From sequence record PZ787841.1: a DNA stretch of 47,035 bases. One strand, written 5' to 3'. Shown in pieces: positions 169 to 47,035 of this stretch (positions within the stretch are counted from its first letter, which is position 1; each line of letters opens with the position of its first letter). Origin of the DNA: a phage. The notes beneath the pieces are model-generated. The model saw only the letters and a program-made list of their open reading frames with translations, did not search any database and had not been told where the DNA came from. The translations under genes and the position numbers were made by a program.

Positions 169-201
169 TCTAAGTCTCCGGTTGTTTGCTGCCTAAAGTA
201 T

Positions 202-231
202 GTTGTACCATAGGGTTGGGGGCCGTGTCAA
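202..231 (-). promoter_or_regulatory. Weak member of the repeated promoter family (TTGACA -35 at 226-231, poor -10), inside a GTTGGGGG/CCCCCAAC hairpin
   Basis: Minus strand reads TTGACA-18-TACAAC; the downstream leader CAACCGGAGAcTTAGAGATG is shared with the copies at 40.2 kb and 42.0 kb. Confidence 0.3.
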
Positions 232-244
232 CCCCCAACTTATG

Positions 245-2103: not shown

Positions 2104-2109
2104 TATTTT

Positions 2110-3580: not shown

Positions 3581-3593
3581 GTTTTAATCTCTT

Positions 3594-3625
3594 AAAAAGC
3601 GGCCCCCGAAGGGGCCGAAGGAGGT
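3594..3625 (-). terminator. Rho-independent terminator on the minus strand, immediately upstream of the helicase start
   Basis: Minus strand reads GGCCCC-ttcg-GGGGCC followed by GCTTTTTAAG. Confidence 0.5.
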
Positions 3626-3656
3626 AGCGATACCTCAGGGTAGCTACTGAACGTTC

Positions 3657-4409
3657 TTACATGTCGCTGTGATCTTCCGACGTTGCGTCGAAGGTGCGGT
3701 CTGCTGCGACCTTGCCGGACATCAGCAGCTCGTAGAAGTTTTCAGCACGACGATAGAGAGCTTCGTTCACGAAGGCCACCGGGTCGATTGCCACGTTGTA
3801 GAAATCCTGGCCTGCTTTGTTCTGGTCCGCCACGCCACGGATACGGTACAGGCGGGAGAAGCGATCGCCACCGTTCAGGCGAACGAGGCTGTTGAACTTG
3901 CGGCTAACACGTGCTTTGGACTTCGCCATCGATACCACAGCTCGATGATTTGGCCCGTGCTTTCGCTGACGATAAGACCGAAGTGCTGCGGGGTGTCTAC
4001 CACTTCCCACTCTTCCGGCTTCTCTTGGGTGCTGCGGACGCCTTCGGCTTCTTCTTCGGTCGCGAAGCTGCCACCGAATCCGCCGCCGACCTTCTGGTCA
4101 CGCCACAGCAGGTATTCTTTGACGAAAGCCACTGGCACGAACAACACCGATTCGCCGTAGACTTCACGGGTGACGTTGTTATACAGGTCGCCTTCCTGAT
4201 GCCTTCGATGTAGTTGGGGAAGCCTTTGCGGACTTCGGACAGGGACTGCACCAGTTCGAGGCGCGGCACTGTCATGTCTTCGCTGCCGACACCTTCGTTC
4301 CCGCGACCGTCGCCCATCTTGTCACGCAAGAAATCAGGTACAGCGGAGTTAGAAGGTTGGCTACATTGAAGCCAGCTTCTTGGGTAGCTACTTCGTTCTT
4401 CTTGGTCAT
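3657..4409 (-). CDS. Hypothetical protein (about 250 aa, stitched from three frames)
   Basis: ATG at 4407-4409 (MTKKNEVATQEAGF...); overlapping minus ORFs 3997..4329, 3875..4147, 3657..4010; no motif recognised. Confidence 0.4.
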
Positions 4410-4522
4410 GTTGTTTCTCTCTTATCTATTGGATTTGGCTTATGCCGTTGTTGATGCTGTTTCTTGTTGCTCGATTCTAGCGGGGGAGACGGCCCCCGCA
4501 ACGCCGGACTGATCAATCGAAA

Positions 4523-4786
4523 TTAAGTTTCAATTGGTGCGTTTTTAGGCGCTTCAGCGTGAGTGCCAGTGAAGGTCGGGGTGATCGCACCTTCTTTGTT
4601 GGCGTACGCTTTAACCTTCTCGCCGTCCACTTTGAAGATGGTCGGAGAGGAGGAGGTGCCAAAACCGTACTGCCCACCAGCTTCCAGAACCTTGGTCACT
4701 GCGCCAGAGGCTACTACGTTAGCCGCAGAACGGTTTGCGAATGCTACTACTGCGGTTGCTGCTACTACGATGTTCAGTTTGCTCAT
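4523..4786 (-). CDS. Small secreted protein with N-terminal signal peptide
   Basis: Intact 87-aa ORF MSKLNIVVAATAVVAFA...; hydrophobic N-terminus. Confidence 0.5.
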   Translation of the reverse strand: MSKLNIVVAATAVVAFANRSAANVVASGAVTKVLEAGGQYGFGTSSSPTIFKVDGEKVKAYANKEGAITPTFTGTHAEAPKNAPIET

Positions 4787-4842
4787 GGTTAATCCTTAGT
4801 TGGTCTTGCGGGTTGGCGGGGTCTTGATGCCCCCAGAAGTGC

Positions 4843-4851
4843 ATTATACCA
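4843..4851 (-). promoter_or_regulatory. Extended -10 element TGGTATAAT (minus strand) upstream of the secreted-protein gene
   Basis: Plus-strand attatacca at 4843-4851; no good -35. Confidence 0.3.
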
Positions 4852-5022
4852 TGGTCGATGCCGGATGCGAGTATTGTTTTGCATCCCAACGTATTTTATT
4901 TTTTCTGAATGGCTACATAGGTCTTCGGCGACACGTTAGTGGGTCTTCCGGCAGGCCGTCATTGTCGGCGATAAGAGTCTTTGCTCACACCTTCAGACTG
5001 GACGAGTTGACTGTGTTCTGTA

Positions 5023-5435
5023 TCAGGTCGGCGTGACCGTGGTCTGACAGCCGGAGATATGCTCCCTCTTTGGCACCTGCACGGGTTGACGCATGATGCT
5101 GCTGCTCATATAGACACGACCAACACCCGGCACCGTGAATGACTCGATGCCCGCGTCATCCATTTTGTCGACCATGACGCTATGGCGAAGCCAGTCATAG
5201 GTCTTCTGCATGTCCTTCTTCGAGCGGTCGATTTTCTCGACCGATTCGTTCATCTTCTGATGAATCAGGGCCAGCACTTGAGGTCGCAGCACCGCAGGGC
5301 GTCGCCGACACGCTCTACGCTGAGAAGCTCGGTGGCCTCGTTCAGAAGATCAGCCAGTTGAACCACGCGGGCCAGTACGCTGGACCCGTTCAGGCCGATG
5401 GTTTCTTCGGTGTTGGTGGTGTTTTGTTCGTTCAT
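5023..5435 (-). CDS. Hypothetical protein
   Basis: ATG at 5433-5435 (MNEQNTTNTEETIGLNGSS...); continues in ORF 5023..5292 after a frame break. Confidence 0.35.
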
Positions 5436-5460
5436 CTCTAATCTCTCTCTTATTTGTACT

Positions 5461-5821
5461 TGATAGGAATGTTTGGTCGACCGATAGACTGATAAGTTCT
5501 GGATTGAAGCTGACATCGATGTACGCACCGTCGATGCGGGACCACCAAAGGACGCTAACTTCACCTCATCTGGATAGCCAGAGCGAAGACATACCCCATG
5601 ATGATGGGTTTCCAGACAGCAGGAGGTAGTCGCGGTCCGGGTCGAACTGGCGCATGGCGTCCTCGATGTCGCGCATCAGGGCTGCGTTGCGTGGGCTGTT
5701 TTGACCGGGCTGAACTCGATGGAGGTGATGAAGACGACCTCACCGATTTTTCGGCTGGAAGGTAGTTCAGGTTGGGGTTTTCCTGGACTACGAAGACTTT
5801 CGGCTTTGCGTTGTTGTCCAT
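5461..5821 (-). CDS. Hypothetical protein
   Basis: ATG at 5819-5821 (MDNNAKPKVFVVQENPNLNYLPAEK...); frame breaks downstream. Confidence 0.3.
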
Positions 5822-5854
5822 TAATTAATCTCTCAATCTCGATAAGAAAGGGCC

Positions 5855-5863
5855 ATTATACCA
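5855..5863 (-). promoter_or_regulatory. Extended -10 element TGGTATAAT (minus strand) sitting in the loop of hairpin GGGCCAT/ATGGCCC
   Basis: Plus-strand gggccattataccatggccc at 5850-5869. Confidence 0.3.
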
Positions 5864-5879
5864 TGGCCCGTATGCTTGT

Positions 5880-7720
5880 CTATCGCAGAAGCGCCAGAAG
5901 CTCTTCGGGTGAACGGTCCATGCAGTCACGCACATATGCTGGAAGGTCTTTCTTGTCGTGGATGGCCTTGGCGATGGTGACGTCCACAGTGCCACGTGCC
6001 ATCACATCCGTGTATACTACCGAGTTGGTCGACCGATACGGTGGTTGCGGTCCTCCGACTGCATCCGGTCAACGAGGATGAAAGAGTTGGACATATAGAA
6101 CGTGCGGCTGGCCTTGTTCAGGGTGAGGCCCGTGCCCCCGGTCTGCTGGTTCGATACGAAGAACATGGCGTCACCCCTGAAGGAATTTGCGTTTCTGCTC
6201 GTCGCGCTCGTCCGGGTTCAGCCCGCCGTGGTACTGGCACACCGCATCAGCTCCGTACTTCTCGGTCAGCGCTTCCACGATGTCGGCGATTTCGGGTCGG
6301 AACTGGCCCATATAATCATCGGGTGTCCGGCGTTCTCCTCCGCGTACTCCATCAGGTACGCGATTTTCGGGTTCTTGGCGGGTTCGATGATGCGCACGAT
6401 TTCGCGGTGGCGAGTGCTATGCTCGTCGTTCGGGTCGTCCAGCTTCCAGTACGACACATATCCGGCACAAACTTGCTGCAGGGCCGTATAAGCCGCCAGC
6501 ACGTTCTCGCAGACCAGTTCCACGAAGGAATCGGTGACTGCCCAGCACGCTGGGCCAGCAGCACCGAGAGGTCGGCCTGACGCTCCTTCTTCATTTGGTC
6601 GTATATCTTCTTCTGTTCGGCGGTCAGGTCCACTTCCACGGTGGTATACATCTTCGGCGGGAGGTCTTTCAGCACGTCTTCCTTCTTGACTTGGTACACG
6701 TACGGCTTGATGATCTCCATCAGCTCTTCGATATTGGTATACCCAGTGATTTGCTTGTTCTGGAACCCGCCCTTCTCGCAGTAGCGAGCTTGGAACGACC
6801 CGAAGTCGCCCAACCCGATGATGTCCGGTGACAGGAACTGGAACTGCTGGTACAGGTCCATCGGCCCCTGCGAGATGGGCGACCCGCTCATTATTGCCTT
6901 GTATTTGGACTCGCGGCCCAATATCTCGATGTCGATAGCGCGTGATGCGTCGTGACCCTTGATTTTGTGCGACTCATCCACTGCCTGCATGCGCTGATGG
7001 CTGCGGCGGACAAACTGGGAGGTAGCCGCATACGCTTTGCCCTTCGCTTTGCCCTGACTGAGTGACTCGATGCCGACGATAAACACCTTCATCTTGTTCA
7101 TACCAAAGTCAGCATCGTTGACAGTTTGGCCTTCTTCTCAAACCCGGACATGGTGGTGTCGCAAACAAACGCCTCGTACGGCACGCCGCAATGGATAGCC
7201 AGCTCGTTCACCCAGTTGGTACGGAGCGGTACGGGGCAGTAAATGACCAGCGCGTTTACGATACGAGCGCGGAACCGGGCCGAGGACAGGGTAGATCAGG
7301 GTTTTCGATTTGCCAGTGCCCATCTCCATGAAGAACGCCACCAGCGGAGAGGACCAGCTAAAATCCAGCGCGTCACGCTGGAACGGGAACGGGTTTGTCT
7401 TGAAGTTCGTGCCACGTCGGGAACAGTTCGCGCCGGGTGATGGCGACCGAGTTCACGGCCTCGTTGCACTCCTGTATCACTTGGTCACAGATAGAGACGC
7501 CCGGCTTGCCGACGATGTTGTTCAGCAGGTGCTCGGCGTTCCGACGGATGATCGGCACTACCCAAATCGAGCGGCGTTTCTCAAAGCGGCGGTTCGGGAA
7601 GGCACATAATAAGGTTGTGTACGAGATGGACGCCTCGATATGCATACGCCCGGTGTTGTCGTTCAGACTGATTTTCATGTATGCGCCGGGGCGCTTGTTG
7701 GTATTCGTAGAGTAGAACAT
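5880..7720 (-). CDS. SNF2-family (SF2) helicase/ATPase
   Basis: Motif I GTGKS (ORF 7138..7341), DExH box DESHKIKG (ORF 6352..7101), C-terminal QSEDRNHRIGR motif VI after stitching. Confidence 0.8.
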
Positions 7721-7778
7721 GTTTACATCTCGCTCATTTCTTTCGGTTTGATTTCGGAGGTAGTCAGCTTATCCACCT

Positions 7779-9273
7779 TCACATACCATACATTAGACAG
7801 ACTGCTTGCCGACACGTAGCTTGGTATGCTCGCACCCGTGTTGTTTGAGGATGACCCACACCTGCGGCCCCTTGACGTCGTCGGCACGGTTCTTCTTCAG
7901 GTAGTCGAGGAAGTCCTGACCACGGAAATATACCATGCGGGTTCCGTCCCGGTCCTGCACGACAGGCGTGCCATAGTGCAGCGATTCGCGGTCGTTCTGG
8001 TCCAGCCCGTCCGATTCGAGGTCGGTCTTGGCGAGAAAGGACTGGAGGCGATTCCACATAACACCCTCGATGGTGGCCTCTTCCGGCGCTTCTATCGAAT
8101 ACCGCTTTCGCCATCAGGTCGTGGAGTATCACCTGCCAGCGGTCGTTCTTCATCGGCGGTATCAGGCGGGTCAGTGCCTCGGCGACAGCTTCACGTACGG
8201 CCCGGAAGTCCATCAGCTGGTGGTCAGCAGGTTGACACGCGCCCCATCCACGTACATCGACCAGCGCACTGGCGTAGTCATGTATTTTTCGAGCGGGCCG
8301 AAGGCCGGGAGCGCCCCCATGTCCATCTCGCCCTTCTCCTCCGGTGTGATACCGTATTTGCGGGTCACACACTCGAACGAGCGGCACAGTGATTTCCAGG
8401 GTTCTTCCTTGCACTTATAACGATAATCGCGACGCCCGGCACTGGCGATGACCTTCTTCGCCTCGGCGTGTGACATCGGTTCGGTGAAGATGCGGGCATT
8501 CATATCGAAGGCGCGGTCAACGTAGGTTTCCGGGAAAGCCTGCTTAAGGTAGATGACCATGTTATACATGGCCTCGTTCCGGTGGCCCTTGCCGACCGTC
8601 CGCTATCGATACGCTGGATGCACGGCGGCGCTTCCTGATGCTCGTTATCGCCCTTCTCTATCAGCATGCCCGGCGTGGTGCGGCGAGACTCCGCCACATC
8701 GAGGAAATGCTCGAACGTGATGCGCTTTCCGCCTTCCATGCAGTACCGCAGGCAGTCCGGGTTTTCGGCATCGAACCATGCAAGGTAATCCAGCTTCCCA
8801 GCTGTTGTTCGCCCGTCATCTTGTCCGGTGGCAGGAAATCCTGCTTCGGGAAGACCTCACACCCGCCGTGGCCCAGTTGCACCGCCCACTTAGCCAGTAT
8901 CTTTCTGATGACCGTAGCGCGGATGGTTCGTTGGCGAACAGATAAAGGTGAGCGCCGCCTGACTGGAGCGGCACACGGTCAGCGGGTAGTCCAGCTCGCG
9001 AACCAGCTTTTCCAGTGCATACAGGTCGATGTCCTCGGCGTCACCGTGGGCGTCGATGTCGATGGCACCAAACCAGCAGAAGCCGTCATCCATAATCGGC
9101 ACCAGACCTAGCCCCTTCTTGCCATCGAGGTGGTCGATGAAGTGGTCTATCGTATAGCTTGATTTCTCGGTGATACTGTGGCGCGAACTCGGCACATTCG
9201 GCGTAAACTGACCGAAAGACCGCTCGTTGCCACGGAATAGTTGGACGAACCGCAACAGGTTTCTTTCGTCCAC
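7779..9273 (-). CDS. Primase, archaeo-eukaryotic (PrimPol-like) type, with PriCT-like C-terminal region
   Basis: FGAIDIDAHGD motif in ORF 8890..9273; cysteine-rich region KCKEEPW...CRSFEC in ORF 8213..8569; position next to the helicases. Confidence 0.5.
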
Positions 9274-9420
9274 TAGCGTTTCCTCGTTATCTCTTTATCT
9301 CGGTGCCCATTAAAGCACAGATGACGCCGCCCGCGCTAGTATCCTCTGTTCGGCACCACTCTTTCACGCCCGCGAGAGGTTTTTACTGTCTACCGCCGAC
9401 GACGACGGGGCCGACGGCAT

Positions 9421-9620
9421 CCAGTGTTATCTGTTCCGGGTCTGTTCCATCTGTTCCATCCTGTTCTGGTGGCTGATGGAACGCCTCGTGCCGGGAAGGA
9501 CGCGGTCTGTAGAGGTGTTGTTCCATTGTTCCATCTCGGAACGTATCGGTCGATATTGTCGGCCGCCGACAGCTTCGATTCTCGCGGCGTAAAAACGGAA
9601 CAGAGGAACAGCATCAGAGT
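9421..9620. repeat. Iteron-rich element, copy A: repeated TGTTCC/GGAACA half-sites flanking the perfect palindrome TGTCGGCCGCCGACA
   Basis: ctgttcc x4 at 9430-9468; gttccattgttccatc at 9512-9527; palindrome at 9556-9570; ggaacagaggaacag at 9597-9611; about 90 bp near-identical to 33866-33962. Confidence 0.7.
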
Positions 9621-9645
9621 GCTGGAAAAGGCAGTCCTCATCTTT

Positions 9646-9745
9646 CAGCAAACGAGAAGCCCTCCGTGAAGGTCGAGCATCGAGGCGGTGGGGTAGTGGC
9701 TGGACCCCCTCTTCATGTAGAGGAAAGTACCAGCCGTTTGAACAG
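9646..9745. repeat. Conserved ~100-bp element, copy A, directly 3' of the tail-fibre gene
   Basis: Ends gcaaacgagaagcCctccgtgaa and gaaagtaccagccgtttg match the 34948-35055 copy with the same 52-nt spacing; internal hairpin cctct-N6-agagg. Confidence 0.6.
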
Positions 9746-9762
9746 GAGGGATATCTACTGGG

Positions 9763-12750
9763 TCAGGCTAGCCAGCGCGTGGTCTGGGATGGCGGTTTCG
9801 GAATAGATGTCATAGTCCGCACCATATTTTTGTACAGAAGATACATCCCCAACCCACGGAAGATTTCACCCGTGTAGAACCCGAAGGCCATGCCGTTATC
9901 GTTCGATTCCCTCGGTGCCGGACTCCATGCTCCGTTGATGTTCTTGCCGGGAATGCTGGTCACCGTGAGTTGTCCGCAAGCTCCCTGACGCACCCCTCGA
10001 TAAGCACGTCTAGGTCTGGCACCGTTGACCCCGCCATCTTCGAAGAACTGCACCCGCGAGGAAGAGGCCGCACATATGGCCCGTGAAGTCGTCGGCACTG
10101 GTACTGACGGCCCGGTCGATGGGAAATCGGTCGGTGTCGCCTTGTACTTGCCCGAGTACACGATAAGCCAGTATGCCCAGTTCTCTACGTACTGCTCCAG
10201 CTTCTCCGGCACAGGCTGACCACGCACCTTAAGCTCATACCATGCGCGTGCTGCGGCGTTGAACGCACGGGGCTGATACCCGGCCCATGGGTGACCATCA
10301 CCCCAATGATAGTTGGTCCATGTGTCCGGAGGCCCGTACTTGTAGTTGTCCCAGCGGTTCCAGATGTAGGCTGCACAGCCCGGACCCAGTTCACCAATCA
10401 TCGTGGAGTAGGCCGCTTGGCTGTCGTGCATGAACTGCACCCGATTGTGAACCACGTGGCGTACTTGGACGGGTCTTGATGGATGGTATACATGAACGGG
10501 TACTCGATACCCCGGATACGGCATACCGTGCCACGCTCCATCTGTTCTGTACCTTCCGAGTAGATGTTCGAGAACGGGATAACACCCGGCGCATAGGCCA
10601 GTGAGTCCAGACGGTTAATCATCGTGCAATCACCGATGACCGCCTTGTACGACTCCGGGCAGTTCAGCATCATACGGTAGGTCATCGTCCAGCCGTTGGG
10701 GATATTGTATAGTGGCGGCACGTCGCTTACCACGTAGTAGCTGAAGTTGGCGTTCGGCGTGTTGGAGTCCAGCAGGATAGTTATCTGGTCAACCGCCACC
10801 ATGTTCGGCGTGCTCGGCTCCGGGTCGGCCTCGGTTCCGCCATCCGGGTGGTCAGGCTGGTAGCCGGACAGTGCTGCATCAGCCGGGTTAACTCGACGGT
10901 CGCCCAGTTGCCACGAGTAGCCGGGAGCATCCACCACCAACGCCAGTTGTCGCCGTCAAGCATACGCATGTTGAAGTCTTGGTCGGCTTTTACACACGAT
11001 CTTCTTCGGAATGACTGCTTCTTCGTTGGTCAGCCAGAAGCCAATCACGAAGCCCGCGTCATCGTCCGGGAAGTGCGCGTTGATCACCGTAGCCTGCCGC
11101 CCATCGTGGACGTTGGTTTCGAACGCCTCGGCCCACGTGCAACCACCGTAGTCGGTCACAGCACGCGCATCTGCAACCATGTAGTCGTCATCAGTAGCCG
11201 GGTTGGTCATCAGTGCCAGCGACGTGATGGGGATATCACGGGAAAACAGGTGTCATGCGATGGACTTCGGCAGGGCCAGTCCATACCATGTCGGGTTCGG
11301 CACTTCCTCCTTCGTGGGTGACACGTCCAGCATAACCTCGATGCCGACCTGCTCCCCGGTGTCGCCGATGCCACCATAGGTCGCACGGATTTTGGCGTTG
11401 TAGTCGACGCGGAACCATACCGATTGCTGCTCCATATAGTGCTGGGCCGAGCGGTCCACAGCGACCGTGATGTAGCCCGCAGCGTCGCGCCCGTACTCGA
11501 TGACCGCCGTGTTGGGGTAGCTGATCGTAGCCGATGCCATCGGTAAACGGCGTGTTAGCTACCACCGACTGGCGGAAGAACTTGTCGAGGCTGTCGATAT
11601 AGGTGTACTCGTGGCTTGTGTAGAAGGCACAATCGCACGCCTGCTTATATTTAGCCTCGCCAGTGATGCGCCACAGGAGGTAGCAGCTATCGATGAACCA
11701 AAGCTCGGCATCTGCCGCGTTCCCTAGCTGGTTGTACGACGGAGGCGTGGCCTTCAGCTGCTGAATGGCATATGCACCGGGCGGTTGTGCCATGGTTCAT
11801 TCCGCGCAAACATGTAGCCACCCTGCGCCACTGGTACACGTGATGCGTAGTTGAACAGCCATACCCCGTTTACGGTCGTGTCCTTGAGCTGAATAGTGCC
11901 GAGCTGCGCTGGCTGCGTAGCCGCCGTCGATGATGTCGCCCGCATCGACGTCGAGATCTTGTTCCCGGTCCATGCGATTATCCAGTCCACCGGGTATTCT
12001 TTCGCCTTCGTATCACCGCCTGACCACACCGGAGTGTATACGTCGCCGAGGTACGCCTGCCAGTTAATCCACGCGGAGGATTTCCACGGCTCGGTGACGC
12101 CCGTCGTGATGCGGTGGGAGTCGTACCGTCTGCCAGTTAATCTGCCCGGCGACGTCTTCCTTGATTTTCTGCACTGACGCGTTGATGGCTTCCCACGTCA
12201 TGTGGCCCCGGTGGGCGAACGTCGCGGTGTCCAGCCATTCACCGAAGAACGGTGCGCCCTGTGGGATTTTGGCCCGACCATTGGTAAACACAAGCGGGAC
12301 AGACTCGAACCCACCATGGGTAGCATCGACCGGGTCGATTGGGTAGTGGGCCAGAATCGGTTCTTTGCCGTTTACCAGCCAGTTGCAGATGTAGCGCTTT
12401 GGCGTGGTCGGCACTGGTTGCCCGGCGTAGAAGTAGGCAATATACGCATCCCGAGCCTTTTTCGCGGCGTTGAGAAAGGTCACGTCACGAGTAGCCAGAT
12501 ACATATGGCAGTAGCCGATGATATGGAGTGCCTGACCTTCGGTCGCAGCATCACCGTTCGGCTGGTACTCGGCACGTGTCATGCCGATGAAGTGGCGGTT
12601 GTTGGCGAGTACGCCCTCGTTGTTCTGCAGATAGTGCTGCACCTGCGCGTCGTTGGTGTCGCCCGTATTCCGGCGAGCAAAATCCTGATGCCCATAGGCA
12701 AGAGAAAGAGCGGCGGCAAGTGCGCCGCCGTTAGCAGTATATAGTGACAT
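9763..12750 (-). CDS. Large tail-fibre / tailspike-like protein (about 1000 aa, many frame breaks)
   Basis: ATG at 12750 (MSLYTANGGALAAALSLAYG...); contiguous minus ORFs 12064..12750, 11754..12029, 11236..11793, 10398..10940, 9763..10524; sits after the J-like gene. Confidence 0.45.
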
Positions 12751-32928: not shown

Positions 32929-33295
32929 TTAGTGCCCCAACCCTTGACTGTACGATGGATGGGGGTCGGTGTCAATTAGTTTGCAGCGTCCCAGTACTTC
33001 ATGTCGATGACGCCAGCCGCCTGCATCTTCTCCAGCAGGCCATAGGCTGAGTCGCTGCACTGCGGTAGATGTCGTGGTATCCGCACTCGTCGTCGCCGAC
33101 CACCGTCTGGAAGCCACCAGTGAACAGGCGGTAGTGATGCCACACTTTACCGTCGATGCGACGCAGGGCCACACATGCGTTCACGTCGGTGTCCATGCCG
33201 TCCTCGGTCATCACTTCGTGCAGGTCGTCCGAGCGCTCGATGAAGAGTTCAAACAGCGGGGTTTGCTCTGGATAGCCCATAATACCCACTGGCAC
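32929..33295 (-). CDS. Hypothetical protein
   Basis: ORF 32999..33295 (MPVGIMGYPEQTPLFELFIERSDDLHEVMTEDG...). Confidence 0.3.
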
Positions 33296-33338: not shown

Positions 33339-33461
33339 TTAGTACGCCACGCCAGAGTGCAGACGGGTTTTCATGTAGCGGGCCACGATAGCCTTCGCTT
33401 GTTCTGCGGTGTCTGCGTCGTAGGTCGCGATGGTCTTGCTGCAAAACTTGAACTTGGTCAT
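33339..33461 (-). CDS. Small protein (40 aa) behind a consensus promoter
   Basis: MTKFKFCSKTIATYDADTAEQAKAIVARYMKTRLHSGVAY; leader CAACCaCCCGGAGATgcAGAGATG resembles the other promoter-proximal leaders. Confidence 0.35.
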   Translation of the reverse strand: MTKFKFCSKTIATYDADTAEQAKAIVARYMKTRLHSGVAY

Positions 33462-33501
33462 CTCTGCATCTCCGGGTGGTTGGGGTCGTGCTGTAATCTT
33501 T

Positions 33502-33563
33502 ATTATACCAAAGCCCCAACTCCCTGTCAATGGTCGATGCACGAGGATGCGACCTTTGTCACA
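33502..33563 (-). promoter_or_regulatory. Consensus sigma70 promoter TTGACA-17-TATAAT (minus strand) with an upstream TGTGA-N6-TCGCA palindrome
   Basis: Plus-strand attata at 33502-33507 and tgtcaa at 33525-33530; palindrome (plus strand tgcgacctttgtcaca) at 33548-33563. Confidence 0.55.
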
Positions 33564-33747
33564 CGAAGCACGGGTTCAAATAGTTGGGATGTGGCACTCG
33601 TCACGCAGCACTCGGAGGTCGGTCTGTGTTCCATCGAGCGGTCGTTCGAGCATAAGAGGAGGGGGACTCGACGGAACGTTCTTTTTATGTGTATCTACAT
33701 AAGCTAATCTTGACAAGATAGGCACTCTCATGCGTTCGGGTCTTTTT

Positions 33748-33962
33748 GTTCCATTGCGTTCCACCATCGTTCCACTATGCCCGGAACAACCCTCCTAAAC
33801 ACGCGCGTAAAAGGGAAACCGCGTCGGTCGCGGACTCTCTCGCCTCGGACGGCAGTTCAGCTATGTCTGTTCCATTGTTCCATCTCCGAATATTAAGTCT
33901 CATATTGTCGGCCGCCGACAGTTTCGATTCTCGCGGACGTAAGAGTGGAACAGGGGAACAGG
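33748..33962. repeat. Iteron-rich element, copy B (same architecture as 9421-9620)
   Basis: tgttccat/cgttccac repeats at 33758-33780; gttccattgttccatc at 33869-33884; palindrome TGTCGGCCGCCGACA at 33906-33920; ggaacaggggaacag at 33947-33961. Confidence 0.7.
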
Positions 33963-33989
33963 CCATCGAGCGCTGCCCATGGCGCTGCT

Positions 33990-34910
33990 ACCCCGGCCCC
34001 AATCCCCCTTTTTAATGTATTCAGCAGACCTGAGACCGTGGTTTTCAGCTGCTGCTCCCGGCGCTTGGCCACAGTGCCGCTTATCGTGTTCCCACAGGCC
34101 ACGACCATGCCCGACAGCTCCAGGACCGACAGGAATTTGTCCTTGCTCTCCATCAGTGCGACCATCAGGCTATCGACCAGCATCACATCACCATCATCCA
34201 CAGGTCGGTCGACCACTACCGCCTGCAGTGCTGCCTTAATCCCCATTCACGGTACTGGCGACTGTGAACTGCTCACGACCAGCTGCGTTTGTCTCTTGCT
34301 CCCGACATCGGTCAGGGAGAGCACGTATTCGTATTCATTTTCGTCTTCTTCACAGTCCCACCCCGTCCATCAGCTCATTAACACCGTCACCTCACGAGCG
34401 CCCATCGGCAGCTCGACCCGATACCAAGCCTTCAGTCCGGTCTTCGCAGTCGAAGCGAGTGCGTCCATTGCCACCCGGTGGTATTCGTTCACCAGAGGAA
34501 CCAGCCACGGGGTCACGCCAGCCAGAGCAGCAATCAGCTGGTTTTCCAGCATCTCGGCACTCAAATCCTGCCCAGCACCCGCAGGTCAGGACAGGCTTCG
34601 CTGCCACGGTTGCTCGAGCTTCCACCCACCAGCACCGACACATCAGCGTATTTTCTCGTATAATCGGTCCCCGCTATCGCAGTTATGGTCCGCACGCCAC
34701 CAGTGCTGCGTACAAGCTCACCACCCACCGCAACCACGTTCCCACAGTCCCGGATAAGCATCTCGGTCAGTCCACGCTCTACATCCACCCCACAACGTCT
34801 GAACGCCTCGACCGTCTTTCCCAACCTCTGTAGCCGTACCAACGACCGTCGACTCGAACCCATCAGCCCAGATGGTGGTTATCTGGAATTTCTGACCTTC
34901 GCCTTTAGTA
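33990..34910 (-). CDS. Cluster of about three small hypothetical ORFs lying between the two halves of repeat copy B
   Basis: Minus ORFs 34561..34863, 34370..34564, 33893..34246; no motif recognised. Confidence 0.3.
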
Positions 34911-34947
34911 TTCATTTTGTTCACCTTTTGCATCCGACAGTTTATTT

Positions 34948-35055
34948 CAGTATTTAGCAAACGAGAAGCTCTCCGTGAACCTCTCGTATTGACCCGCTAC
35001 ATCAGTATTCCCGACCCCCCTCAGGTCAAGGGAAGTACCAGCCGTTTGCACTCTT
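34948..35055. repeat. Conserved ~100-bp element, copy B, directly 3' of the AP2-like gene
   Basis: gcaaacgagaagcTctccgtgaa ... 52 nt ... gaagtaccagccgtttg; internal hairpin ccct-N7-aggg. Confidence 0.6.
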
Positions 35056-35449
35056 GCGTATTCTCCACCACGTCGAGGTTTTCACCCTCTTCTCTGGACT
35101 TCCTCAGGGCGTCGACTACATTAGCCGAGTTTGTACCTTGCTCAGGATTTCGGCCTGAAGGTAGGCCACGTGGGGTTCTGGACAGTCCGACCATCGGATA
35201 CAGCACCACAGACTCGAAGGCCCGCAGGGTATCTTTCAGCCGCTGGTTGGTGCTTTTATTAATCAGGTCACGGAAGGGTGCTGCGGTGCGGTAGGTGGTG
35301 AACAGATGGACGTAGGCACCGACAGACGTCAGTCCACGTGCCACGAAGTAGGTGTTGCGGTCCCCGTGCATCAGGCGGGCCATCCATGTGCCATCGCTGC
35401 GTGCGATATGTACATAGACCTTCGGGGTGTTTTTGGTGTCTTTCATGTT
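35021..35449 (-). CDS. AP2-like DNA-binding domain protein
   Basis: MKDTKNTPKVYVHIARSDGTWMARLMHGDRNTYFVARGL...AYVHLF (W-A-R / YLG-like AP2 pattern); no catalytic domain seen. Confidence 0.35.
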   Translation of the reverse strand, partial: NMKDTKNTPKVYVHIARSDGTWMARLMHGDRNTYFVARGLTSVGAYVHLFTTYRTAAPFRDLINKSTNQRLKDTLRAFESVVLYPMVGLSRTPRGLPSGRNPEQGTNSANVVDALRKSREEGENLDVVENTQECKRLVLPLT

Positions 35450-35494
35450 GTCATCTCTTATCCAGCAGATCCAGCGGCTTGCCGGGGGAAGTTT

Positions 35495-35542
35495 AGTATA
35501 GCACACTTCCCCCAACCTGCTAACCTATGAACAACGTTGTTT
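35495..35542 (-). promoter_or_regulatory. Sigma70 promoter TTAGCA-17-(TGc)TATACT (minus strand) with upstream perfect palindrome AACAACGTTGTT
   Basis: Plus-strand agtata at 35495-35500 and tgctaa at 35518-35523; aacaacgttgtt at 35531-35542. Confidence 0.45.
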
Positions 35543-35622
35543 GGCGTGCTTATACGTTTCCTTATATAAGGATCGCCGGCTGTGTGCCAGTCGTGCCAGG
35601 TCCACCTGTACGACACCGAGGG

Positions 35623-35898
35623 TCAGGCAGCATGAACTGTGGGTTCGTCGCCGGGCGCTACACCCGTGCCATCCCTCGATACAGGCCAGCGGCTGTATAC
35701 CAGTACAATCCCGGCGGGGAGCAGCCATTCACGGTGCGCGATTCGCCCGACGTTCGGACCGAGCAGGTTCGCCCGGTACAATGCAGCACATACATCGGAA
35801 TCGAGGAAGACGGCGAGAAGCAGGGCGATAGCCACGCCAAAAGCGACCTCCCACGTGGTCAGCGCCGCGATTTGCAGCATCAGGTTGTTCGATAACAT
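35623..35898 (-). CDS. Small membrane protein
   Basis: MLSNNLMLQIAALTTWEVAFGVAIALLLAVFL... (C-terminal part of ORF 35623..36180). Confidence 0.3.
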   Translation of the reverse strand: MLSNNLMLQIAALTTWEVAFGVAIALLLAVFLDSDVCAALYRANLLGPNVGRIAHREWLLPAGIVLVYSRWPVSRDGTGVAPGDEPTVHAA

Positions 35899-39635: not shown

Positions 39636-40020
39636 TCAGGCCGACTTTTTGGTGCGCTTGGCATATGACCCGCGCGGTTTGTCGGATACACGGCACTCGT
39701 TCCCGGCGTAGTTGAAGCCGTCGTCCTCGCGGAACTCGGCCCGGCCCGGATGTCGTACTCTTTGATGTTGGTAGATGGCACGGGTTGACGTGCTCACGGG
39801 CGCGGCGAGTGGCACCGAACTCGGTGGACTCACCGTAGTGGTTGCGGTTGCAGGTCGGGCAGTTGATGTCGGGATGACGGCGTTGTGGAAGTGTGCATCA
39901 TGGTAGCCGTCCTTCAGCGTGGCGGTGGCGCCGCACGAGTCACAAATAAGGGTGGCGGTGAAGTCGTTCCCGTGCTGGTGGGTGATGGTCTGGACTTTTC
40001 TCTGTATCTCCGGGTGGTGC
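39636..40020 (-). CDS. Zinc-ribbon protein
   Basis: CDSCGAT...CPTCNRNHYGE after stitching; GGAGA RBS before the start. Confidence 0.3.
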
Positions 40021-40035
40021 TGGGTTTATTAGCCT

Positions 40036-40200
40036 TTATACTGGATTGCGGTGCCGTCGAAGTAGATACACATAACCATAGCACCCTTGCGCAGCAGAAC
40101 TGAACCGAGGTCGGTTCTCGAACTCGGTCCAACCCTGCGCGGTCGCTTTTGCCACCGATACTGCCTGCTGGTTAGTTGCTTTCATCTCTAAATCTCCGGT
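40036..40200 (-). CDS. Small protein behind promoter b
   Basis: CAACCGGAGAtTTAGAGATG leader, MKATNQQAVSVAKATAQGWTEFENRP... Confidence 0.3.
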   Translation of the reverse strand, partial: TGDLEMKATNQQAVSVAKATAQGWTEFENRPRFSSAAQGCYGYVYLLRRHRNPV

Positions 40201-40228
40201 TGGTGCTTTGTGCTGCTTCTGAATTTTT

Positions 40229-40300
40229 ACTATACCATAGGGTTGGGGTGTTGTCAATCCCCCAACTTATCTCTATGTAGAAGATGTGACACGCATCACA
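40229..40300 (-). promoter_or_regulatory. Consensus sigma70 promoter TTGACA-17-TATAGT (minus strand) with an upstream TGTGA-N6-TCACA palindrome
   Basis: Plus-strand actata at 40229-40234 and tgtcaa at 40252-40257; palindrome tgtgacacgcatcaca at 40285-40300. Confidence 0.55.
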
Positions 40301-41863: not shown

Positions 41864-41981
41864 CCATAAGACCCCCGCCAGCAGGATCACTGCCAATACT
41901 ACCGCGAAGCCGTACCATGTTGCGCGGCCTGCTTCACGTGCTGGGTTCTCGGTGGTGTACTCGAACAGTGTATTTGTTCAT
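41864..41981 (-). CDS. Small membrane peptide behind promoter c
   Basis: CAACCCGGAGATgaAGAGATG leader, MNKYTV... then WYGFAVVLAVILLAGVLW after a frame break. Confidence 0.3.
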
Positions 41982-42022
41982 CTCTTCATCTCCGGGTTGG
42001 TGGGGGCTTTGCCCCTGAATTT

Positions 42023-42083: not shown

Positions 42084-42501
42084 GTTTACCCCGCTGCACT
42101 GCCTCCTTCTCGCGTCTGGTCATCATGGTTTTTACCCTAATGGTGGTGTCGATGACCTGCTCGTTGTAAAGCAGGTCCATCCACTGGATGATCGGGCCAT
42201 GTCGCCCTCGAACTTCTGCGACTGAATCTGCCAGTAGGTGACGTGGGGTAGTACATCACCGTCCGGGTCAGGTTGAAGCGCACACTGCGCATTTTCGGGT
42301 CGATTTCGAACTCACAACCCTTGAACTGCCGCCGCTGTCGTCCATCTGCTGGACCAGAGCGGAGGCAATGCCCATAACTGGGCTTGTGTTGTTTTCAGCT
42401 TGGCAGTCATTAGTATTCCACCTTAGGCAGGGATTCCATTTCATAGCGGCGCATAGCGCCACGCAGCACGTTTCCGAGGTTCATGCGTTGCATTCCGGGG
42501 T

Positions 42502-43348
42502 TCAGATGCCGTAGCGGTTCTGCAGGTCGGAGAGGCTGCAGGTTGTTTTCTTGTTGCCAGTCCCCACGTGGTCGATGCCCAGCACTCGCAGCACTTCGGC
42601 GGTGTAGCGGTAGACGTCGGAGATATCCATGCCGCGCAGAGCAGACGCCACGTAGTCCACGATGTAGATGGTCTTGCGCCCGGTAGTAGTGACGCCCAGC
42701 CCGACCGTGTAGCGGTCCATGTCCGGGTCAACCTTGTAGTTGCCGTTGAAGTCCACGCCCCAGTCGCACGCTTCGCAGTTGCAGACGGTGCTTTCGTGTT
42801 CCAGCACTCCGTCCGGGTTCACCTTGCCGAATACCAAGTCTTTGCTGTTGACGCTCGGGCAGGCTTTGAGGGCGAACAGATTAGCGCGGGTGATGCGCGG
42901 TGCTTTGGTCACGCGTTCGATGCGCTCGGCTTCTTTGCGCTCGGCTACACGTTCCATCACTTCGCGGCCTTTCGCGTTGCCACGGTTCATCAGCATAGCC
43001 GCCATGCCGGATGGCTTGCGCGGGGTTTCGTCGTGCTCTTCGGCGATATGCTCTGCCAGCGATTCGGCGCTCAGGAACTCGCAATCGCACTTCTCGCACA
43101 GGTGGGTGTTGTCGAGGTTGAAGGATACCTCGGGTGATTCTTGTCGCCAGCGGCGGACAGGGTTTCGATGGCTTGGTCGAAGCCAACTTCAGCGAGAGCT
43201 TCGAGCGCGGCTACGGTCGCCGGGTCGCTGTCTACTTTGCCAGAACGGATTTTGCGGGTTGCACCATTTTCGTCGGTATAGGTCACCCAACCGTTATTGA
43301 TGCTCGCGCGACTTGCACTAATTTGCCGTCTACGATAGCCTTGCTCAT
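42502..43348 (-). CDS. Zinc-finger protein (about 280 aa), candidate early regulator
   Basis: AGGAGA RBS and ATG at 43346-43348 (MSKAIVDGKLVQVARASI...); HLCEKCDCEF...EHIAEEH and CNCEACDWG motifs; ORFs 43071..43286 and 42502..43005. Confidence 0.4.
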
Positions 43349-43396
43349 TGTGTATCTCCTAATCTCTCATTGCCGGGGGCGTTGCCCCGAATCTTA

Positions 43397-43461
43397 AGTA
43401 TAACATAGAGTTGGGATTTGCGCCAAGCATCGACATAATCGAGAGTGTGACCTTTGTCACG
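43397..43461 (-). promoter_or_regulatory. Sigma70 promoter TTGGCG-18-(TGt)TATACT (minus strand) with an upstream TGTGA-N6-TCACg site
   Basis: Plus-strand agtata at 43397-43402; tgtgacctttgtcacg at 43446-43461; leader hairpin GGGGC-gtt-GCCCC at 43375-43388. Confidence 0.45.
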
Positions 43462-43755
43462 GAACGGCACCATAAAGGCCGTAGAAATGGCAGGCTAACA
43501 GCACATGTATCCGGCACTGGGTGTCATGCCGCAGGAGTGGCAGCACGTGATACAACGTCGTGCCTTTCCCGTTTATGGACGGAGTATACCAGCGGTTCAT
43601 GTGTTTCCACGCGTCCCGTATATCAGCCAGCTCGTTCCCGATATCGTCCGGTATACCCTTGTAGTAGTCGAGGAAGTCATCGACCGCCACATGGTGGGCC
43701 ATCTCCGCCGTGCTGGTCTTTGCAATGAAATTCCCGTCTTTCGACGGGATGAGGA

Positions 43756-44169
43756 TCATACCCTCGCTAACAAACCGAATAGCCATTCGCGTTTAACCTC
43801 TTCGCTGAAGGAGTGGCGGACGGCGTCCAAGTCCATCGTGGTCGGTCTTGATGGAAGGGTCCACGCCAGCGTGCCCTCGATGGCATACCATCCGACACTC
43901 CGACTTCTACAAACAGCCAGACATTGCCCGCCATCCCGTGGCGGCGAAGCCATGAACGTTGGCCCTGCGAAGTGGGTCAGGTCCAGTCGGCCCTTGTCGT
44001 CCAGCTCCCCAGCCTTCATCTCGATAAACCCGTGTTTTGTGCCATAGGTGAAGCACAGGTCAGGGAATGATGGCGCGGTGGCTGGCGACTCGATGCGGTC
44101 GTATGCCACGTTCATGTGCCGAAGGACCGGGCGAAGCTGGTCCCACATTTTCTGCTCCGGTTTACGCAT
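43756..44169 (-). CDS. VRR-NUC-type (PD-(D/E)xK) nuclease
   Basis: FPDLCFTYGTKHGFIEMKAGE in ORF 43756..44214. Confidence 0.45.
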   Translation of the reverse strand: MRKPEQKMWDQLRPVLRHMNVAYDRIESPATAPSFPDLCFTYGTKHGFIEMKAGELDDKGRLDLTHFAGPTFMASPPRDGGQCLAVCRSRSVGWYAIEGTLAWTLPSRPTTMDLDAVRHSFSEEVKREWLFGLLARV

Positions 44170-44171
44170 TT

Positions 44172-44743
44172 TCAGCACCCAAATAGTCGATGCGACCAAG
44201 GTAGTGGTCGGCACTCAGGGTCAGACAGCTCGTTCCACAGGGCCATCGCCGCCGACTTCCAGAGCGGTGATACATGGTCGAGGTACTGGATGAAACGCTG
44301 GTTCAGCCCGTGTAGCTGGTCGCGGGCGTAGCTACCTTCCCCATGCTCCATCAGCCAGTACAGCGCCTCGATGAAATCGGCGATTCGACACATACCTTGA
44401 TCGGGCCTTTGGTGTCGATTGACCGATAGTAGCCATCGCCTGCAGTCGCTTCCAGAGCTTCGAGTTTTGCCTTTGCGCCGAGGTACTGCTTGGTCGGCGT
44501 GTTGATGTCGCCAGTGAAGACTTCCGGCGCATCGTGCCACAAGGCCATGACCGCCACGCGACCCAGCTCCACGTCGGTGGCGGCTTCGCCGGGGTTCCCA
44601 CCAGTGCGGCGTAGCCACAGGTCCATCGCCAGCATAGCCACGGCCCATGAGTGTTGCGCCACGTTCTGTGGACGGGTGGTCGGCACTATCTGCCAGCGGT
44701 TTACATACTGTGCGCGCATCAGGTCGCGGGGGGTCATATTCAT
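44172..44743 (-). CDS. datZ: HD-domain phosphohydrolase, DatZ-like dATP hydrolase candidate
   Basis: HD motif QHSWAVAML...LWHDAPEVFTGD in ORF 44351..44743; small size; sits beside the PurA-homologue and MazG-like genes. Confidence 0.6.
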
Positions 44744-44854
44744 CTTGTTATACCTTCTTCGAGTTGTGTTGTGACAGATAGTGCCGTTTGCGGGCGTCCT
44801 GCGAGGAGAACCGTCTACCGCAGACTACACAGAGATATTTCTCTATCGGTATGT

Positions 44855-45660
44855 TCAGCGGCTGCTGGACCACTCCGACACTCTGGCTACCACACTGATG
44901 CCCTTATGAACCACCGGGGCGACACCTCGAGTGCGACCGCCATCAATCACATGTTGATGCGTGCCGTCTTCCAGCTTCTCCCACACCCGTTTCTCATTCA
45001 TTGCCATCTTGTTGGCTACGGCCTTGGCGATATCGATCCCGGCTAGGTGTCCGATGTCGAGCAGCAGGATAGCCACATCAGCGAATTCCCCGGCGTCGAG
45101 GTATTTGCTGGTGTCCAGCTCGGTTAATTCCTTCTTCAGCTTCAGCACTGCTTCGCCGATGGTGCGCTCGGGGAACGTGCGGTCGGCCCAGCCGGAAATC
45201 AGCTGTTGGACTTCGGCGATTGTTCCGGTTGAGTATTGGCGAGTCGCTCGCGTCTGTCCATCTTGTAGCGCTTTCTCAGGCACTGGTTGCACACGTAGTC
45301 CGACTTCGCCAGACGGCTGGGGCTGAATGTCACGTCCGACTGCAGGCACACGCGGCACACGGGCGGTCCAGCGGCGGTCATCTTGGTCTGGTCGGTTTTC
45401 GGCAATCCATCGGATAAACATAAGTCCACTTGCGGCGTGCGCGGCGTGGTGGAGGTCGGTTTCATGGTAATCGTTGCTCTTCTCTAATTCCAGTATGCGA
45501 CGCTCACTCCATCCAGAAGGCGCTCGACTGTCAGCCCGCGCCAGTTTCATTTCCCGTATTTTGCCTCACCCGTCGCCAGTACCCGCGCCACCTCCTCGGT
45601 GAAGCGCGGGTCAATCAGGCTAACGGGGCTTTGTCGGCATCGAGTTTCGATTGCTTTCAT
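44855..45660 (-). CDS. mazZ: MazG-like nucleotide pyrophosphohydrolase, MazZ candidate; an N-terminal KYG..NW region and an internal CxxC...CxxC segment may belong to it
   Basis: C-terminal GEAVLKLKKELTEL...GEFADVAILLLDIGHLAGIDI...NKMAMNEKR (ORF 44855..45550); ATG at 45658-45660; zinc-ribbon segment in ORF 45199..45465 in another frame. Confidence 0.5.
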
Positions 45661-45673
45661 CGCCCCTGCTCCT

Positions 45674-46781
45674 TATTCCTGCTCGTGTTTCATGTCGGTG
45701 AAGATGTCGTTCACGGTCGCGCCGTAGCCGTAGTATGTAGCCAGCGGCATATTGCCCGGAATCCCGGCGACCATTGCGGCACGTTCGATGGTTCCCACCA
45801 CTCAGCCACTTCGTCCGGCGTCATGTAGTTGGAGAAGTTGAGGAATACTCATCCGGGCGAATCGACTTCGAGCGCCGCCAGCGTCTGCAGGTAGCCGAAG
45901 GTGAAGATGCGGCGCGGGAGCTTGGTCACGGTGGTCAGTTCCGCTTCCATTCCGAGGTCTTTCTTCCAGTCCAGTTCCTTCTGGTCTTCGTAGTACGGGC
46001 CGGACCAATTTGCTCACCTGCTCGTTGTTGTAGCGGTTGGCTACGCGGATTGGGTAGGTGCGCATCGTGGCGATCGTGGTCTCGACGAAGGCCAGCGGCA
46101 GGTTGACGTCGACACAGACCTGTGCCGGGGTGCACTCGCGGGAGGTCGCATACGGGTAGAAGCCGTTGTTGATGCCGAGGCTGAGTCCCTGCGCACCCTC
46201 CACCGAATGCGTTCCGCGTCGTAGACTACCGACATATACTCGGCGTTGTTGGCGGTGCTGGTGGAGATGCCCGCTTCACGGATTGGCTTGCTTGTAGATG
46301 TGCTCTTCCATGTAGTCGGCGTTTCCGCCTACCGTGTTGTTGTCGTCCGGGTTGCGCGATGGATTTGGAAATCATCGCAGCACCGCAGCCTTTCTTGGTA
46401 GACCCGATTTTGGTCATCGGGCCTGCTTCCTCTTCCACGTGCTTCTGCATGATAATAGCAGCGGAGGAGTGTAGCATGATGCGTTTGCCGCGCAGCAGGT
46501 CCACACAGGACAGGATTTCGTCGCGCAGCAGTTCGACGTTCATCTGGCTACCGGGGCCAATCGGCACGGTGGTTAGCTTCGGCGATACGATGCCGTTTGC
46601 CAGCATGCAGTGGACAAGCTTGCGGCCTTCTGCATCGATGAGGTGTGGCCTGCGTTGGCACTCCACGCGGTCATCACTACGTCCGGCTGGTCGCGCGGGG
46701 CGACGTAGCCCGCAATGAGACCCTTGCCAGTGCTGCCAACTGCGCGTCAACGATGATAGTGGCTTTTTGTGTTGCTTTCAT
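45674..46781 (-). CDS. purZ: Adenylosuccinate-synthetase homologue, PurZ candidate (N6-succino-2-amino-2'-deoxyadenylate synthase)
   Basis: ATG at 46779-46781; P-loop-like GSTGKG, ANAGHT (GHNAGHT-like), LVHCMLANGIVSP, FEGAQGLSLGINNGFYPYATS (ORF 45802..46203); stop TAA at 45674-45676. Confidence 0.7.
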
Positions 46782-47035
46782 TTTATTGCTCCTGTGCATT
46801 TGCACGTTGTTTTAAGTTTAGGGTTGTACTGCGGTACTGCGTGTTCTCGGAGTGGGATGTCGTCGTCGAAGTCCATCGGCGGTTCGCTGCTCTGGTTCGA
46901 CGGGTTGTTGCCCCATCCACCTTGCTGCTGGTTCTGCTGCGGCTGCTGGTTGGCACCCAGCTGGCGCGGACCCTGTGCACGGGCCTGTGTGTTCTGGCGG
47001 GTGTTGGCACCGGGGCCGTCTTTCGGTTCTACCGA
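46778..47035 (-). CDS. ssb: Single-stranded DNA-binding protein, C-terminal part only (gene starts beyond the window end)
   Basis: Gln/Gly/Pro-rich tail ending PPMDFDDDIP, characteristic of the bacterial-type SSB C-terminal tip. Confidence 0.6.
   Translation of the reverse strand, partial: SVEPKDGPGANTRQNTQARAQGPRQLGANQQPQQNQQQGGWGNNPSNQSSEPPMDFDDDIPLREHAVPQYNPKLKTTCKCTGAIK

Follow-up and report, generated by a model that had tools for sequence, protein, structure and literature searches.

Genomic context of the two elements

The window, i.e., the whole stretch of phage DNA that was analyzed (47,035 nt, record PZ787841.1; all coordinates refer to it), is collinear with the Salmonella phage PMBT28 and with phage PSA28, and its DNA identity to PMBT28 is about 70-80% in the alignable parts. 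All genes, including all conserved genes, are located on the minus strand, in agreement with an earlier note on this DNA, which had described a genome transcribed from one strand. Homologues of PurZ, MazZ, DatZ, a DpoZ-type PolA, SSB, two helicases, and an AEP primase are encoded at 42368-47035 and 1-9273, and the phage is therefore assigned to the PMBT28-like siphoviruses with a 2-aminoadenine (Z) genome. For the PMBT28 genes, incorporation of 2-aminoadenine into DNA has been demonstrated (PMC12944874). Comparison with the PMBT28 proteins revealed at least 29 frame changes in 11 conserved genes, about one per 800 nt, and the genes broken in this way include those for the primase, PolA, the tail fibre, the portal, and PurZ (e.g., 7722-9273, 1-2103, and 9763-12750). 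With this many frame changes, the sequence looks like an error-prone assembly, for which long reads of base-modified DNA are a possible source. Despite the error-prone assembly, the differences between the two copies of the element described here are mostly real.

The two copies, A (9518-9611) and B (33866-33962), are located 24.3 kb apart at two module boundaries, as the earlier note had stated. The boundary at A separates the tail-fibre and primase genes, and that at B separates the early genes from a block with small genes, terS, and the lysis and structural genes. Copy A is flanked by the end of the last tail gene at 9763 and by the start of the gene for the AEP-type primase at 9273. The primase gene (7722-9273, minus strand; found with tblastn against PMBT28 and frameshifted here) lies directly downstream of array A, and its PMBT28 orthologue matches Pfam AEP-TOTE (7e-12) and the primase family phrog_21866 (3e-244). 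The replication module begins with this gene and continues with those for an SNF2 helicase, Pam3 gp32/33/34-like proteins, a UvrD-like helicase, PolA/DpoZ, and SSB. Upstream of element A, a terminator-like hairpin (9644-9683, minus strand; terminator-like match at 9672-9660) ends the late (tail) operon, and the same motif is also present 3′ of the tail gene in PMBT28, PSA28, and the metagenomic contig L139. A paralogous terminator-like segment with 80% identity is found at 34953-34992 (minus strand), and a terminator-like hairpin lies ahead of each array.

Copy B is located about 340 bp upstream of a sigma-70 consensus promoter (33502-33530, minus strand; TTGACA-17-TATAAT, 12/12 matches, with TG), which points away from array B toward the small genes and terS, with the lysis genes and the structural operon further downstream. 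The same promoter is present in the same place in PMBT28 and PSA28. The homology between the two copies extends beyond the elements, as 9644-9683 matches 34953-34992 and 9707-9743 matches 35015-35051 (about 80% in both cases). These outlying matches show that copy B holds an insertion of about 990 bp (33963-34952, minus strand) relative to A, situated between the terminator-like duplicate and element B. The block contains two to three small orphan ORFs in three-frame translation, for which no homologues were found in PMBT28, PSA28, Providencia phage Kokobel2, or Acinetobacter phage SH-Ab 15497, and it looks like a moron insertion.

The promoter at 33502-33530 belongs to a family of near-consensus sigma-70 promoters with a TG-extended -10 motif, further members of which are located at 40229-40257 and 5855-5882 (minus strand). 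Conserved 5′ leader/RBS repeats accompany this family (155-221, 33449-33485, 39999-40018, 40185-40248, and 41969-42005), and its members are probably early promoters for the host RNA polymerase. Just downstream of array B lies a T4 Gp30.8-like gene (32999-33295), the PMBT28 homologue of which is about 10 kb off on the map (35333-35674), indicating a local rearrangement of the early region.

Alignment of the two copies

Global alignment of 33866-33962 with 9512-9611 yielded 82 matches in 103 columns, 9 of which are gap columns. The identity is thus 87% over the ungapped positions (82/94) and 80% when all columns are counted. The left edge of copy A is at about 9518, while 9512-9517 are unaligned to copy B. 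Across 115 nt, the identity of the two copies is 83%. The earlier note had put the identity at about 90% and had described a contiguous element with the same palindrome in both copies. The alignment supports this description with the values given: the similarity forms one element of about 95-115 nt and not scattered short words, and the 15-bp palindrome TGTCGGCCGCCGACA is present at 33906-33920 and at 9557-9571.

Three blocks are common to both copies, i.e., GTTCCATTGTTCCATCTC (9520-9537 in A, 33869-33886 in B), the central block ATATTGTCGGCCGCCGACAG.TTCGATTCTCGCGG with 97% identity over 35 nt, and the right-hand block GGAACAGnGGAACAG (9597-9611 in A, 33947-33961 in B). They follow one another in the same layout, with about 18 nt between the first and the central block and about 9 nt between the central and the right-hand block.

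The repeat is real and far above chance. The local score of copy B against A is 98-115, while comparison with the remaining windows reached 30 at best, and no further copy of the repeat rose above background elsewhere in the 47 kb (150-nt windows, both strands). The motif TGTC-N7-GACA occurs twice in the 47 kb, once per copy. The hexamer GTTCCA occurs 42 times in the stretch compared with 24.4 +/- 4.7 times in shuffled sequences, and it is clustered at 9433-9609 and 33628-33959.

Anatomy of the arrays

The core of copy B is a dyad element (33866-33962, no strand assigned), which was delimited from the sequence, the alignment to A, and the list of boxes. Two GTTCCA boxes on the left (33869-33874 and 33877-33882) and two inverted boxes on the right (TGGAAC at 33946-33951 and GGAAC at 33955-33959) are separated by a spacer of 64 nt, which contains the palindrome. 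A distal box cluster follows at 33748-33787, with GTTCCA at 33748, 33758, and 33769 and GGAAC at 33783, and equivalent extra boxes are present in PMBT28, PSA28, and Kokobel2. An outlying GTTCCA box at 33628-33633 lies about 95 bp upstream of the promoter -35 hexamer. Between the distal boxes and this outlying box is an AT-rich patch (33678-33713) with 23% GC over 30 nt, a 30-mer that is among the ten with the lowest GC content in the 47-kb stretch; it is a possible unwinding element.

The core dyad element of copy A (9518-9611) has the same organization, with boxes at 9520-9525 and 9528-9533, the palindrome at 9557-9571, and inverted boxes at 9597-9601 and 9605-9609. Its distal box cluster (9433-9482) is on the primase-proximal side, and a degenerate second palindrome, TGTCTACCGCCGACG (9387-9401, 12/15 matches), is situated beside the upstream region of the primase gene; a second palindrome is present at the equivalent place in the relative L005 and in PSA28. 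A GC scan of array A detected no AT-rich patch. The iteron in the window is TGTTCCA with a spacing of 8-11 bp, and the GC content of the central spacer is 56% in A and 48% in B, compared with 57.5% for the genome.

A putative third array at 6761-6844, four GTTCC boxes in one orientation within the SNF2 helicase gene, was rejected. The boxes represent Phe-Gln codons (QQFQFL, SFQ, and GFQ), and the DNA is not conserved in PMBT28 or Kokobel2.

Paired arrays in related phages

Two arrays per genome, one at the primase gene and one near terS, were found in PMBT28, PSA28, Kokobel2, SH-Ab 15497, and a metagenomic clade of PurZ phages of about 59 kb (the L139 clade). PMBT28 and PSA28 each contain the TGTCG-N5-CGACA palindrome twice, with flanking GTTCC/GGAAC boxes, at both equivalent places, and the palindromes of the two Kokobel2 arrays are TTGTCTTCGGGAGACAA and TTGTCGCCGGAAGACAA. 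In SH-Ab 15497, a reference Z-genome phage, the arrays are located between the tail and primase genes and directly upstream of terS; the boxes are GCAACCG with a period of 8 bp, and copy B is inverted. In the L139 clade, the primase of which is 44% identical, two stereotyped 250-bp arrays with twelve GTTCC boxes in the order ++--++--++-- are located upstream of the primase gene and directly upstream of terS. Both arrays were observed on eight contigs, and both have AT-rich centres.

A strong consensus sigma-70 promoter fires into each array of the L139 clade (L139:1103-1131, minus strand; L245:3814-3842). At copy A, the promoter (12/12 matches) is directed away from the primase gene and runs antisense to every gene. 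The terS-side array is inverted together with its promoter, and promoter and array appear to be conserved as one unit.

Array A is located directly ahead of the AEP primase gene in all relatives examined that have a primase of at least about 44% identity, even when the upstream neighbours differ. Further primase-bearing relatives have the same layout upstream of the primase gene with the boxes CTATCAC, GGTAACA, and TTCTACA and arm spacings of 41-45 nt. The box word therefore depends on the lineage (GTTCCA, GCAACCG, GGTAACA, CTATCAC, or TTCTACA), and it is identical in both arrays of the genomes with two. The match across both arrays includes the flanking base, i.e., TGTTCCA in PZ787841.1, CGTTCCA in PMBT28, GGTTCCA in Kokobel2, and AGCAACCG in SH-Ab 15497. 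Such sharing of one box variant within a genome would be expected if the arrays co-evolve with a trans-acting factor. The TGTC-N7-GACA motif is conserved in most relatives; only half-sites of 4-5 bp are kept, and the centre and the adjacent position vary. Judged from the sequences, such half-site-only conservation is the signature of a putative dimeric protein site rather than of a hairpin.

The copies of PZ787841.1 and the orthologous copies of PMBT28 have the boxes alone in common, although A and B are 83% alike, and thus the two copies evolve in concert. This would be expected with one rapidly evolving phage reader protein, with recombinational homogenization, or with both. The lineage-specific boxes and the conserved palindrome point to putative trans-acting proteins and not to an RNA structure. 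A shared role of the two copies, which the earlier note had suggested, is supported by the five cultured relatives and the metagenomic sister clade, which keep two equivalently placed arrays with the same lineage-specific box per genome.

The arrays are located at 9564/33913 in PZ787841.1, 20859/43616 in PMBT28, 20930/43154 in SH-Ab 15497, and 39157/14155 in Kokobel2. In all five genomes, the arrays are 45-55% of the genome apart and thus nearly opposite on the circular map, a spacing that may reflect the size of the structural module alone.

Beyond this group, GTTCC/GGTAAC arrays are present in unrelated viral contigs between the genes for a VirE-like primase, VRR-NUC, and an SNF2 helicase. 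Several other GGTAAC matches of the scan were rejected, as they turned out to be collagen-like coding repeats, and scans with palindrome words returned chance or coding matches only. Searches with the exact words GTTCCATTGTTCCA and TTGTCGGCCGCCGACA in viral contigs and with the 20-mer ATATTGTCGGCCGCCGACAG in metagenome contigs revealed no relative closer than PMBT28, PSA28, and L005.

Search for a putative box-reading protein

When phages that use GTTCC were compared with the other phages, the box type was tracked neither by the windowed identity of the primase nor by the sequence of its C-terminal domain. A homologue search with a 99-aa C-terminal fragment of the primase yielded zero candidates, and the single-sequence AlphaFold model of this domain had a pLDDT of 43, which is too low for use. 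Searches of PDB sequences with the primase, a conserved early protein of 305 aa, and the gp34-like protein returned nothing useful. TerS was rejected as the reader of GTTCC, because the TerS proteins of PMBT28 and of the L139 clade have no detectable similarity (E = 0.08), yet the box is the same. Among about 40 proteins of PMBT28 and contig L245, Pfam and PHROGs detected no HTH or RHH regulator, with the exception of an HTH_21-like ORF of 61 aa near array B in the L139 clade.

The 305-aa early protein (PMBT28 34011-34928, L003 in our set; homologues at about 42511-43122 of the window and at L245:1780-2358) has CxxC pairs resembling those of zinc ribbons, its C-terminal motif, LNVGMQRMNLGN-LR, is strongly conserved, and it is present in every array-bearing genome checked. 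On the basis of these sequence features, it is a candidate DNA-binding factor.

Discussion

Direct observations are the repeat and its anatomy, the presence of conserved pairs, the lineage-specific co-variation of the boxes, and the genomic context. From these observations, we infer that the arrays are bound by a phage protein and function in replication, and we propose that they are putative dual origin-type initiator-binding sites, a reading to which we assign a probability of roughly 45%. One or several early phage-encoded proteins would coat both arrays. At one array, coating would nucleate the loading of the primase, the helicase, and the DpoZ replisome, as at the iteron origins of staphylococcal pathogenicity islands (SaPIs) and phage P4. 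The second array, about half a genome away and ahead of the packaging module, would be a second origin or, alternatively, a bound roadblock or partner site, for which oriR of SPP1 and crr of P4 are models.

Several findings are in favor of origin-type sites. Each array combines a candidate dimer site, TTGTC-N7-GACAA, with tandem and inverted iterons of 6-8 bp, and in both copies at least two hexamer boxes in opposite orientation are present on each side of a centre of about 64 nt. Copy A adjoins the primase gene in the window and in all relatives, as is characteristic of iteron origins next to a primase or initiator gene, whereas copy B adjoins the terS-side block instead. Gene control would hardly account for the antisense promoter at copy A of the L139 clade, and such a promoter is a typical feature of transcription-activated origins. 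Support also comes from the paired and co-varying arrays of the relatives, from the AT-rich array centres in the L139 clade, from the AT-rich 30-mer in array B, and from the arrays beside primase, VRR-NUC, and SNF2 helicase genes in unrelated viral contigs. Other findings argue against origins. A transcription regulator would be just as compatible with the position of the arrays, which precede the promoters of the two big operons by about 90-350 bp; array B is beside terS and not beside replication genes; neither the primase nor its C-terminal domain tracks the box type; and the centre of the element in the window is not AT-rich but holds a GC-rich palindrome, and array A lacks an AT-rich patch. 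If the DNA carries 2-aminoadenine, A:T richness may fail to ease melting. GC and AT skew in five genomes gave no replication signal, as the amplitudes were 160-360 nt and the turning points followed the module composition and not the arrays. In the literature, including a search for GTTCCA iterons, no description of these arrays and no published origin or cis-acting control site was found for PMBT28, SH-Ab 15497, or their relatives. The earlier note had left the choice between regulation and DNA metabolism undecided; on the present evidence, DNA metabolism, i.e., an origin, would be the more likely of the two.

Regulation of transcription is the main alternative, to which we give a smaller chance. 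The arrays would be operator or enhancer sites for a phage transcription regulator, with a small ribbon-helix-helix or HTH protein on the 8-9-bp boxes and a dimer on TTGTC-N7-GACAA, and the replication and the packaging/structural operons would be switched together. This would agree with the location of each array in a terminator-array-promoter gap where an operon begins. About 95 bp separate the last box from the promoter at 33530-33502 downstream of it, the promoters of the primase gene and terS in SH-Ab 15497 are about 90-185 bp downstream of the arrays, in PMBT28 a copy B box stops about 26 nt short of the -35 hexamer, on its upstream side, and in the relative L013 the boxes even overlap an extended -10 promoter. 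The orientation of the array relative to the promoter is variable (inverted in SH-Ab 15497 and the L139 clade, direct in PZ787841.1), which enhancer-like sites tolerate. With their tandem 8-bp repeats and mixed orientation, the arrays resemble operators of the MetJ/omega type. As with omega of pSM19035 and MetJ, short asymmetric repeats stand in tandem, direct and inverted, upstream of several operons; those of omega and MetJ are read by one small protein. The omega heptad is WATCACW, and the box TATCACA of the relative L012 fits it. However, omega heptads are contiguous, with a period of 7 bp, and overlap promoters, whereas the boxes described here are 8-11 bp apart, are split by the centre of about 64 nt, and are mostly more than 90 bp away from promoters. 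No ribbon-helix-helix gene was found with Pfam and PHROGs among the proteins of PMBT28 and contig L245, and the same two databases detected no regulator-like protein among the early genes of PMBT28. Three further points argue against operators: the copy A promoter of the L139 clade faces away from the primase gene, in antisense orientation to all genes; replication modules of unrelated phages contain similar arrays between primase and VRR-NUC/SNF2 genes; and dyad arrays of twelve boxes and about 250 bp are large for a simple operator.

A role in packaging is very unlikely. In this reading, the small terminase would bind copy B as its pac site, and copy A would be a second or relic pac-like site. 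In SH-Ab 15497 and the L139 clade, array B indeed immediately precedes terS, in PZ787841.1, PMBT28, and Kokobel2 it is at most about 2 kb away from terS, and in an unrelated contig a GGTAAC array is located about 330 bp upstream of terS. Boxes that flank a centre also resemble the R sites of lambda cosB and the hexamers of P1 pac. Furthermore, PMBT28 is thought to package its DNA by a pac mechanism (PMC6025938). However, pac and cos sites are single sites at or within terS that are read by the cognate small terminase, and this arrangement was not found. Every genome contains an equally conserved second copy at the primase gene, about 24 kb off, the GTTCC box is common to phages whose TerS proteins are not detectably similar (E = 0.08), and similar arrays are present within replication modules far from any terS.

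The least probable reading, which we regard as hardly tenable, is that the element acts as a nucleic acid structure, either as an RNA hairpin or terminator or as a DNA cruciform or single-strand hairpin recognized by the AEP primase, as the hairpins of RSF1010 ssiA/ssiB are recognized by RepB′: the neighbouring gene does encode an AEP primase, and a long hairpin can be folded from either strand of each copy (-36 to -44 kcal/mol, z = -3.5 to -4.1), but the arms are not kept complementary (the bases between the boxes are TCT/CCT on one side and ATT on the other), the boxes of relatives are spaced by 8 in one arm and by 11 in the other, PMBT28 copy A has a degenerate left arm and PMBT28 copy B has none, and the palindrome is conserved in half-sites of 4-5 bp only, with the next position often mismatched. 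An intrinsic terminator or structured RNA was rejected, because compensatory changes, a T-run after the palindrome, and Rfam matches were all absent.

The interpretation as origin-type sites can be compared with several well-characterized systems. The pairing is like that in the Bacillus siphovirus SPP1, in which two distant sites with the same repeat organization are present in one genome; the arrays described here are likewise distant from one another and are kept in pairs among relatives. In SPP1, one site is in the region of the replication genes and the other in a non-coding late region, and the arrays described here are similarly split. Both sites, oriL and oriR, are bound by gp38, and oriR is located in a late-region segment that is bracketed by transcription signals and contains three moron genes (PMC6316719). 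Copy B is likewise bracketed by the terminator-like hairpin and the promoter and is accompanied by the two to three orphan ORFs. Binding of gp38 to the second site was proposed to stall forks and to trigger the switch from theta to sigma replication and concatemer synthesis (PMC3485210). The likeness does not include sequence or protein homology. SPP1 uses the initiator gp38, the loader gp39, and a DnaB-type helicase, whereas the phage analyzed here encodes an AEP primase, SNF2 and UvrD-like helicases, and its own PolA. In addition, the SPP1 origins have a clear AT-rich unwinding element, in contrast to the GC-rich palindrome in the centre of the element, and oriL is inside gene 38, whereas both sites described here are intergenic.

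The arrangement of the boxes is similar to that of SaPI and P4 origins, where short iterons of five to eight nucleotides, 6-12 in total, are found beside a pri or rep gene. P4 has a second iteron cluster, crr, that is required in cis. The SaPI/P4 initiator (Rep/alpha) is a self-loading helicase of the SF3 type, and its C-terminal winged helix reads the iterons. In SaPI origins, the iterons are immediately downstream of rep and are bound by the winged-helix domain of Rep, at least two are present on each side of the centre in opposite orientation, and the iteron word is element-specific and matched to the own initiator (PMC9371898). In contrast to SaPIs and P4, an SF3-type helicase is not encoded by the phage, and the C-terminal domain of the primase does not co-vary with the box. 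The arrays also differ in the additional conserved TGTC-N7-GACA motif, a putative dimer site, and in the second copy about half a genome away. The arrays share neither sequences nor associated proteins with the origins of SPP1, SaPIs, and P4, yet, by analogy, they would fit their logic.

A more specific version of the origin reading is speculative, and we consider it improbable. The paired arrays would be Z-phage origins that are adapted to a DNA in which A:T-rich unwinding elements melt poorly, TTGTC-N7-GACAA and the iterons would recruit the AEP primase and the helicases, and the terS-side copy would couple replication to packaging, e.g., as a fork barrier that triggers concatemers next to pac.

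Phages of the PMBT28 type supply purZ, datZ, mazZ, dpoZ, a helicase, and SSB, which have been used to build 2-aminoadenine DNA in E. coli (PMC12944874; bioRxiv 10.1101/2025.10.22.683976). With a defined origin and its cognate binder, origin-specific replication of Z-DNA plasmids could be tested. The pairing rule, with both copies changing together, represents a compact natural experiment on the co-evolution of a binding site and its reader, and the arrays are a landmark for the annotation of replication and packaging module boundaries in the PMBT28-like group. Taken together, the presence of two copies per genome and their co-varying boxes make the arrays testable candidates for sites that act in cis in the replication of Z-genome phages.
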